The notes under the pieces: model-generated
Databases searched by the model: none
What the model saw: only the letters and a program-made list of their open reading frames with translations
What the model was told of the DNA's origin: nothing
Translations under genes and position numbers: made by a program
Assembly (NCBI RefSeq): GCF_003334765.1
Contig: NZ_QOWT01000100.1
Length of the DNA stretch: 773 bases
From: Escherichia coli
GTDB lineage: Bacteria > Pseudomonadota > Gammaproteobacteria > Enterobacterales > Enterobacteriaceae
Strand: one strand, 5' to 3'
Part shown: in pieces, positions 1 through 773 of the stretch
Position numbering within the stretch: position 1 is the first letter of the stretch
How the letters are laid out: every line of letters starts with the position of its first letter

Positions 1-773
1 CACATGCTGAGGGTGCTGTCCGGGTGCAGCTCCGGGTCGGGCAGGCGGTTACCTGCCGGGTCTGTGGCATACGGGATGCGGATATCCAGATTCGCTGCGG
101 TGGTGTGAACGCCGGTCAGCCTGCCGGTGGTGCTGTAGCTGTAACTCCGGGTCTGGCGCGGGCTGCTGATGCGGATGAGTTCGCCGTTGTCGTTCCAGGT
201 GTAATCGCGGTCAGACAGCAGGCTGTTCAGGTGCTGGCTCTGTAACTGCCCGGCAGGGGTATAAGCGGTGGTGAGTTCATAACGGCCGAAGCTGCGCAGC
301 GTTTCCCGGTGCAGGCGGTCGCGGGTGTACTCCACCAGCGGTGTGTCGCCGAGTTTCATGCCTGACAGCCAGCCGCTGCCGTAGGTCAGCCATTCCACGG
401 CGGGCAGGCTGTCCGGTATACAGCGGTTCGCCAGTCCCTGTGCGTTGTACGCATGTCTGGTCTCATGCTGCCAGAGCAGTTCATTCGTCTGCGGATGATG
501 CACCGTCAGGTGTTCACTGGCGAGGCGGCCTTTACTGTCATAACCATAGTGCACCGTCACCCGGTGCCCTTCGCTGATATGGCTGATGTCTGTCAGCCAG
601 CCGCGTTCGTCATACTGCCACCGCTCTGCGGTTTCGCCATTCACGGTGCGGTGCGTGAGGCGGTCTGCTTCGTCATAGTGCCAGTGGGTGACCAGCCCCT
701 CATCCTCGCTGCGGATAAGTTTGCCGGTCAGGTCGTGGTGATAACGCTGTGTGCGGCCGTCAAAGCCGGTTTC
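1..773 (-). CDS. rhs: Rhs-family core protein (YD-repeat polymorphic-toxin scaffold), internal fragment; both ends lie outside the window
   Basis: Seen in sequence: the reverse-complement frame with codons at 773..771 down to 5..3 is open for all 257 codons (nt 1-2 are a partial codon). The translation carries repeated YD-repeat motifs, e.g. WHYDEADRLT, WQYDERGWLT, HYGYDSKGRL, YTWNDNGELI, YSYSTTGRLT, YATDPAGNRL, and is rich in Y, D, G, R, T and H. Third codon positions are mostly G/C. Established knowledge: this motif array defines the Rhs / YD-repeat shell family. Assignment to the enterobacterial Rhs core is by recall, not a database search; the paralog (rhsA/B/C/D-like) cannot be resolved, so the symbol is given at family level only. 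Confidence 0.9.
42..743 (-). repeat. Tandem YD-repeat array at protein level, about 21-22 codons per unit, at least 10 units
   Basis: Seen in sequence: anchor tyrosines fall at protein residues 11, 33, 54, 78, 109, 131, 149, 171, 191, 213 and 235 (residue i occupies nt 774-3i to 776-3i), mostly 20-24 residues apart, each followed by a D/N-x-x-G-(R)-L-like segment. Nucleotide echoes of the repeat exist, e.g. ttcgtcata at 606-614 and 669-677 (63 nt apart, encoding YDE on the minus strand). Boundaries of the array are approximate and it probably continues beyond both window edges. Confidence 0.75.

Follow-up and report, generated by a model that had tools for sequence, protein, structure and literature searches.

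The GC-rich core of rhsC in Escherichia coli: composition, age and probable origin

The rhsC locus

The window, that is, the whole 773-nucleotide stretch of DNA analysed here, has only one stop-free frame of six, minus-strand frame 0, which runs for 257 codons and is open through both window ends. It matches rhsC of E. coli K-12 (b0700) at 773/773 nucleotides (100% identity, zero differences within the window) and corresponds to codons 667-923 of this 1,397-codon gene (positions 20001-20773 of the K-12 locus, L001, within rhsC at 18578-22771 on the minus strand). The first-pass annotation had implied a gene read from right to left, with its C-terminus to the left, and this is the orientation of the minus-strand frame. 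In RefSeq, the full gene containing the window is annotated as rhsC. The identical 773 nucleotides are present in many E. coli strains, in some of which they are labelled rhsB or 'RHS element core protein', and a copy of the core is found in 3,901 of 5,426 complete E. coli genomes, at a median of 5 places per genome. We assign the window to the middle of the conserved core of rhsC, a multi-copy Rhs gene, or of an identical allele.

All 257 residues align with positions 675-937 of the 1261 positions of the NCBIfam profile RHS_core NF041261 (E = 4.1e-162, 541.7 bits; the curated cut-off of 2000 bits refers to whole proteins and is out of reach for a 257-residue fragment). Tandem YD (RHS) repeats were found in the window protein, with three matches to Pfam PF05593 RHS_repeat (Table 1) and one match to TIGR01643 YD_repeat_2x at residues 13-52 (33.2 bits, against a cut-off of 15.8). 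At the DNA level, a 15-nucleotide direct repeat, TTCGTCATAnTGCCA, is present at positions 606-620 and 669-683 with a spacing of 63 nucleotides (21 codons), and is the trace of the W-x-Y-D-E motif from two adjacent YD repeats.

In solved Rhs proteins, the variable C-terminal toxin sits inside a YD-repeat beta-cocoon shell. The solved cocoon relatives of the window protein are Tse5 (8cp6), an Rhs-Vgr fusion (8qja), Tse15 (8uy4) and RhsA ('Rhs family protein', 7q97). The window protein aligns over nearly its full length with the shell regions of all four, at E values of 1e-20 to 3e-10; in sequence, these are distant relatives. From this kinship with cocoon proteins of solved structure, the window would be expected to encode part of the YD-repeat beta-cocoon shell of an Rhs polymorphic toxin.

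Table 1. Coordinates of features in the window and of Rhs core pieces on short contigs in other assemblies
Feature	Sequence	Position	Strand	Remarks
rhsC core ORF, internal segment	window	1..773	-	first full codon from window base 773; six-frame translation
YD (RHS) repeat, residues 14-48	window	630..734	-	PF05593, i-Evalue 5.8e-05
YD (RHS) repeat, residues 54-88	window	510..614	-	PF05593, i-Evalue 0.003
YD (RHS) repeat, residues 193-226	window	96..197	-	PF05593, i-Evalue 6.6e-05
Chi octamer GCTGGTGG	window	332..339	- (coding strand)	one match in window
Antisense ORF, 73 aa	window	24-245	+	
Antisense ORF, 78 aa	window	341-577	+	
Rhs piece on short contig	L007	1915-2685		
Rhs piece on short contig	L008			
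Rhs piece on short contig	L010			
Rhs piece on short contig	L017			
Rhs piece on short contig	L015	3-419		
Rhs piece on short contig	L021	312-542		

That E. coli Rhs elements combine a GC-rich core and an AT-rich tip has been textbook knowledge since the early 1990s. Along rhsC, G+C remains at 0.56-0.70 until about codon 1200 and is 0.37-0.47 thereafter; the maximum-likelihood change point lies at rhsC nucleotide 3647, with 62.0% G+C before and 40.8% after. The motif PxxxxDPxGL marks the core/tip boundary, and a toxin/immunity function of Rhs tips has been shown in Dickeya (Poole et al., 2011; PMC3150448). Tip toxins that a downstream immunity protein neutralises, and delivery through a type VI secretion system (PAAR/VgrG), are known from Rhs systems other than rhsC (PMC3150448). 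In rhsC, this motif reads PISNIDPLGL, at residues 1238-1247 of the full protein and outside the window, and is followed by a 150-residue tip and then by ybfB in the position of an immunity gene. Expressed in window coordinates, the GC drop lies at about -875, the junction at -969 and the end of rhsC at -1422, after which comes ybfB. The first-pass annotation had held that tip and immunity regions are AT-rich, and G+C is indeed 40.8-41.3% in the tip and 31.2% in ybfB, compared with 62.0% in the core. It had also placed a sharp GC drop to the left of coordinate 1: the drop was found on that side, but 0.88-0.97 kb past coordinate 1 rather than at the edge.

Base composition and its source

The G+C content of the window is 62.1% (A109 C218 G262 T184). 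The first 120 nucleotides, for which a hand count had given roughly two-thirds, contain exactly 65.8% G+C, and the remainder is similar, as had been supposed, with sliding 120-nucleotide windows all in the range 56.7%-65.8%. In the minus-strand frame, GC1/GC2/GC3 are 62.6/47.5/76.3%. Codons do mostly end in G or C (196/257), with third positions distributed as C 123, G 73, T 33 and A 28.

As host background we used 250 kb in five 50-kb samples from the K-12 chromosome, with 51.6% G+C; the flanks of the rhsC element contain 51.8% and 51.9%. The host is therefore not itself a genome of 60-70% G+C, and the window does not lie near the genome mean. K-12 windows of 773 nucleotides have a mean G+C of 0.516 (sd 0.039), and GC3 in 178 long K-12 ORFs has a mean of 0.575 (sd 0.066; z = 2.8 for the window), with values of 0.49-0.65 in the genes neighbouring rhsC. 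The compositional deviation from the host by which genomic islands are recognised is present both in the window (z = 2.7) and, more strongly, in the whole 3,646-nucleotide core (z = 4.2, relative to K-12 windows of equal length). The reading of the window as part of an Rhs core that is richer in G+C than its host is borne out by the identity with rhsC, the RHS_core match and the difference between 62.1% and 51.6%, and so is the expectation that it would stand out between ordinary flanks, since it falls in the top 0.6% of 773-nucleotide windows.

Only 0.63% of the sampled K-12 windows of this size equal the window in G+C, and all of these lie in the phn operon. In this operon (K-12 phnE-phnI, L006 1-3750), 773-nucleotide windows reach up to 64.3% G+C and one 3.6-kb stretch has 62.2%. 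As the native-looking phn operon matches the G+C of the Rhs core, composition alone is not diagnostic of foreign origin.

To decompose the excess, the same 257 residues were re-encoded with the background (K-12) synonymous codon usage. The protein so encoded has 55.3% G+C and a GC3 of 0.579, compared with 62.1% and 0.763 as observed, and the number of GC-ending codons departs from the expected 0.579 with a binomial p of 5e-10. About one third of the GC excess of the window is due to amino-acid composition and two thirds to synonymous codon choice. The amino acids raised in the window are R, T, Y, G, D and H, and those lowered are K, I, V, F, A and M.

These figures bear on the proposal that the GC-richness merely follows from which amino acids the YD repeats contain, with no need to invoke codon choice or ancestry. 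The core is enriched in R (9.6% vs 5.9%), G (9.1% vs 7.3%), T and P and contains less K, I, F, N and M, and GC2 is raised accordingly to 0.475, against 0.408 in the background (z = 1.8 for the window). The shortfall of the re-encoded protein in both G+C and GC3 nevertheless makes this proposal very improbable: amino-acid composition is refuted as the sole cause and remains a partial contributor.

Codon identity bears similarly on translational selection, by which the high GC3 would reflect the use of preferred codons in a highly expressed gene. Enriched codons such as CTG, ACC, ATC, GAC and CAG are also preferred in E. coli. However, the core is enriched in rare codons too when compared with the background, among them CGG (28% vs 11% of Arg codons), AGG (8% vs 2% of Arg codons), GGG (20% vs 13% of Gly codons), CCC (17% vs 11% of Pro codons) and ATA (12% vs 6%), while the preferred CGT and GGT are depleted. 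Since rare CGG, AGG, GGG and CCC are enriched, the high GC3 is not an adaptation to the optimal codons of E. coli, and translational selection is hardly credible as its cause.

The rhsC element and its age

A query with the flanks of the element showed that ybgA and ybfA lie side by side in 1,313 of the 5,426 complete genomes of E. coli (24%). In strain ATCC 25922, the empty site consists of about 10 nucleotides between the two flank alignments. Delimited by this site, the K-12 element covers L001 13392-22961, or 9,570 bp (window coordinates -6608 to 2961), and contains rhsC, ybfB, an orphan core fragment with its own tip, ybfC, and ISAs1 (H-rpt) pseudogenes or remnants. The K-12 locus has the same architecture as the RhsC element described between ybfA and ybgA, with core, PxxxxDPxGL, AT-rich tip, ybfB, orphan fragment with ybfC, and ISAs1. 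By its presence/absence polymorphism and clean empty site, the rhsC element is accessory.

The element resembles composition-flagged genomic islands in the atypical composition of its core, its presence/absence polymorphism and its IS remnants. It differs from them in its age, discussed below, in that no integrase, tRNA gene or flanking direct repeats were seen at the rhsC element, and in its overall G+C content of 49.6%. Because the core at 62% and the remainder at 42.4% cancel each other, the element as a whole lies near the genome mean and would be missed by a coarse compositional scan. The practical lesson for such scans is that only fine-scale windows reveal the 9.6-kb rhsC element.

A second difference between the two strains was noticed close to the empty rhsC site. 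ATCC 25922 carries a lone 396-nucleotide fimbrial pseudogene (L024 9746-10141) between gltA and abrB, and the K-12 counterpart is the ybgD-Q-P-O fimbrial operon upstream of abrB (L001 1-4433). Judged from these two sequences, the ybgD-ybgO region represents a further presence/absence difference.

In its narrow classical wording, the foreign-origin idea has the core introduced recently, within E. coli, from a high-GC organism. Such an event would fit the polymorphic site, which is empty in about a quarter of the genomes, and the ISAs1 remnants inside the element. The E. albertii genome speaks against it. Positions 1-11743 of its locus (L011) align with L001 30830-19031 of K-12 in one colinear alignment of 11.8 kb at 91.8% identity, which starts at kdpD, passes over kdpA and ybfA and enters the core of rhsC, so that the E. 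albertii core occupies the same ybfA-kdp site. Between the two species, dS (Nei-Gojobori) is 0.24 in the whole core and 0.32 both in its window part and in the kdp and ybfA genes taken together. In this single comparison of K-12 with E. albertii, the core is thus not younger than the adjacent native chromosome.

From the shared site and the native-like dS it follows that the core is at least as old as the split of E. coli and E. albertii. A recent introduction within E. coli is quite improbable on this evidence, and 'recently introduced' is the wrong tense for an rhsC core at the ybfA/ybgA site that predates this split; for the empty E. coli sites, loss of the element is the simpler explanation.

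Two further observations were made in the same comparison. The core protein evolves faster than its neighbours, with a dN of 0.042 compared with 0.013 at a similar or lower dS, and dN/dS is about 0.17 in the core and about 0.04 in the kdp and ybfA genes. In addition, the alignment stops exactly at the last PxxxxDPxGL codon (L001 19031), and the tips beyond it are unrelated. Here an orthologous core has clearly had its C-terminal tip displaced.

Relatives of the core

One scan of species-representative genomes returned 16 loci. Homologous segments with 62-87% amino-acid identity were found in E. albertii (two copies), Citrobacter youngae, C. amalonaticus (copy L013), Buttiauxella, Superficieibacter and Atlantibacter; three further C. 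amalonaticus loci (L018-L020) were left out of the codon-position figures, as their match coordinates span an indel that produces stops. These enterobacterial segments have a GC of 0.60-0.66 and a GC3 of 0.71-0.83, compared with a GC of 0.45-0.56 outside the Rhs ORF in the same loci. High GC3 is a family-wide trait of Rhs cores whose hosts are ordinary in composition. All of the closest relatives recovered are enterobacterial and come from hosts of about 50% G+C.

The gene of the window resembles the RhsA-B-C-F subfamily defined by the Hill laboratory (clade I of Jackson) in its multi-copy core of ~3.7 kb with ~62% G+C and in its AT-rich extension. Copies of the rhsD/E type, such as the second E. 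albertii copy (L009), share only ~73% nucleotide identity with it and are equally GC-rich (GC3 0.79); synonymous divergence between the core subfamilies is dS about 1.

Pieces of E. coli-type Rhs cores were also noticed on short contigs of 0.4-3.6 kb (Table 1), with 73-99% amino-acid identity and GC3 0.71-0.81. These contigs were binned as Oscillospiraceae, Lentisphaerae, Akkermansia or Collinsella metagenome-assembled genomes, or belong to assemblies of Frankia tisae (cov 0.80) and Streptomyces griseoloalbus. Most likely, the pieces in these metagenome-assembled genomes and in Frankia and Streptomyces reflect Escherichia contamination or mis-binning and not real transfer.

Origin of the GC-rich core

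The GC-rich core of rhsC is already known from work of the Hill laboratory and from Jackson (2009), and the present finding is correct and ordinary in this respect. The Hill-laboratory description comprises a G+C-rich core of ~1,200 residues with a divergent A+T-rich extension, and distinguishes rhsABCF, rhsDE and rhsGH (Jackson et al., 2009; PMC2935791). Both this division into GC-rich core and AT-rich extension and a foreign origin are restated in PMC2935791 and PMC7259588, with reference to Hill et al., 1994 and Wang et al., 1998. The idea of Hill et al. (1994) that the GC-rich core came from a high-GC organism is given here as restated in PMC7259588, and the conclusion of Wang, Zhao and Hill (1998) as conveyed by its title in the reference list of Jackson et al. 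(PMC2935791). Jackson et al. (2009; PMC2935791) further concluded that the rhs family is ancient in enterobacteria and that its members are often gained, lost or subject to C-terminal displacement. Our results agree with this 'ancient and accessory' view and disagree only with the word 'recently'. To the existing picture they make modest additions, namely the division of the excess into one third and two thirds, a core older than the split of E. coli and E. albertii, and an AT drift like that of native genes.

We regard a compositional relic of a GC-richer background as the most likely cause of the core G+C, and as a rather probable one. The high G+C is a property of the whole 3.65-kb core and ends abruptly at the PxxxxDPxGL junction. 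The core lineage may have evolved in, or been repeatedly drawn from, a GC-richer genomic background before settling in Escherichia, and its composition would not yet have drifted down to the level of the host. A foreign GC-rich donor is what we infer from the composition, and the foreign origin would be old.

Third-position changes in the K-12 and O157 rhsC cores were polarised with the E. albertii ortholog as outgroup. A distant rhsD-like outgroup (dS above 1) was set aside, as parsimony is biased at such a distance. The 350 weak sites had undergone 14 AT-to-GC changes and the 865 strong sites 31 GC-to-AT changes, a total of only 45; the two counts are unequal (p = 0.016). From these counts, the core has an equilibrium GC3 of 0.53 (95% interval 0.35-0.67), below its present value of 0.71-0.73. 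For comparison, 21 native flanking genes (7,629 codons, GC3 0.584) were treated in the same strains with a B2 strain as outgroup, and gave 147 AT-to-GC and 248 GC-to-AT changes and an equilibrium GC3 of 0.45. With 45 core changes, the per-site ratio of the core is indistinguishable from the native ratio (p = 0.39). The core is slowly losing GC at native-like per-site rates. As this AT drift proceeds at an ordinary slow rate, an old foreign composition could still be visible.

The main rival to the relic is that the high GC3 is a steady state kept in place by GC-biased gene conversion among paralogous cores, or by selection on them; were this true, the GC-richness of the core would be a long-term steady state and not a fading foreign relic. 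The cores are multi-copy, at several places in the median genome, and the K-12 and O157 cores form a mosaic indicative of recombination, with blocks from 100% down to 92.7%. Furthermore, subfamilies separated by a dS of about 1 in six enterobacterial genera all keep a GC3 of 0.71-0.83, and the short-term excess of GC-to-AT changes could represent the passing burden of AT-biased mutations that is usual in native genes too. Yet recent third-position changes run in the reverse direction, the equilibrium GC3 lies under the present value and the rates are native-like. Within the limited power of 45 changes, the polarised third positions of the K-12 and O157 cores contain no sign of a local GC-raising force, and a native-like AT drift lends no support to a special GC-raising mechanism. 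In addition, rhs genes of one clade differ in base composition between genomes and different clades are alike within Yersinia (PMC2935791, where the data are not shown), a pattern that suggests drift toward the host and not a fixed intrinsic bias (PMC2935791). Taken with this evidence, active maintenance is unlikely, while retaining some weight.

The relic reading has points against it as well. The one orthologous comparison, with E. albertii, argues against a recent transfer. Moreover, subfamilies at a dS of about 1 all have a GC3 >0.7 in hosts of ~50% G+C, so that a pure relic would need either a divergence before the enteric bacteria or a very GC-rich ancestor. The first-pass annotation had called the composition consistent with a 'horizontally acquired' core, and this reading is supported with caveats: the composition is no more than consistent with it, about one third of the excess belongs to the amino acids, and the element is accessory, with an empty site in 24% of genomes. 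The foreign origin proposed there is likewise the best reading, but as an old event, given the same site in E. albertii and a dS of 0.24 compared with 0.32.

The mosaic was seen when the K-12 core (L001 19126-22771) was compared with that of O157:H7 (L025 13672-17871) in blocks of 100 codons, and the window overlaps the most divergent of these blocks. This pattern suggests recombination or gene conversion among core copies.

Minor features of the window

An Rfam scan of both strands at E <= 1 gave zero matches in the window, a promoter scan of the window gave no promoter-like site, and a terminator scan gave one terminator-like site that was not above shuffles. The repeat search of the window found short YD-repeat traces and one weak 30-nucleotide inverted pair with 73% complementarity.

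The single Chi octamer GCTGGTGG in the window (Table 1) was considered as a special feature and rejected. Among shuffled windows, 21/200 contain at least one such octamer. The octamer occurs twice in rhsC and 13 times in the 40.8-kb locus, compared with 1.5 times in shuffled versions of the locus, and its density inside rhsC is about that of the native flanks and matches the remaining locus. The octamer is probably incidental.

The two plus-strand ORFs of 73 and 78 aa were rejected as genes, as they have the look of antisense shadows cast by a gene with high GC3. Plus-strand frame 2 has just two stops across the 773 nucleotides, as is typical of the complement of a GC3-rich frame. At third positions of the coding (minus) strand, C-ending codons greatly outnumber G-ending ones, and this excess makes the GC skew positive on the plus strand between bases 1 and 360.
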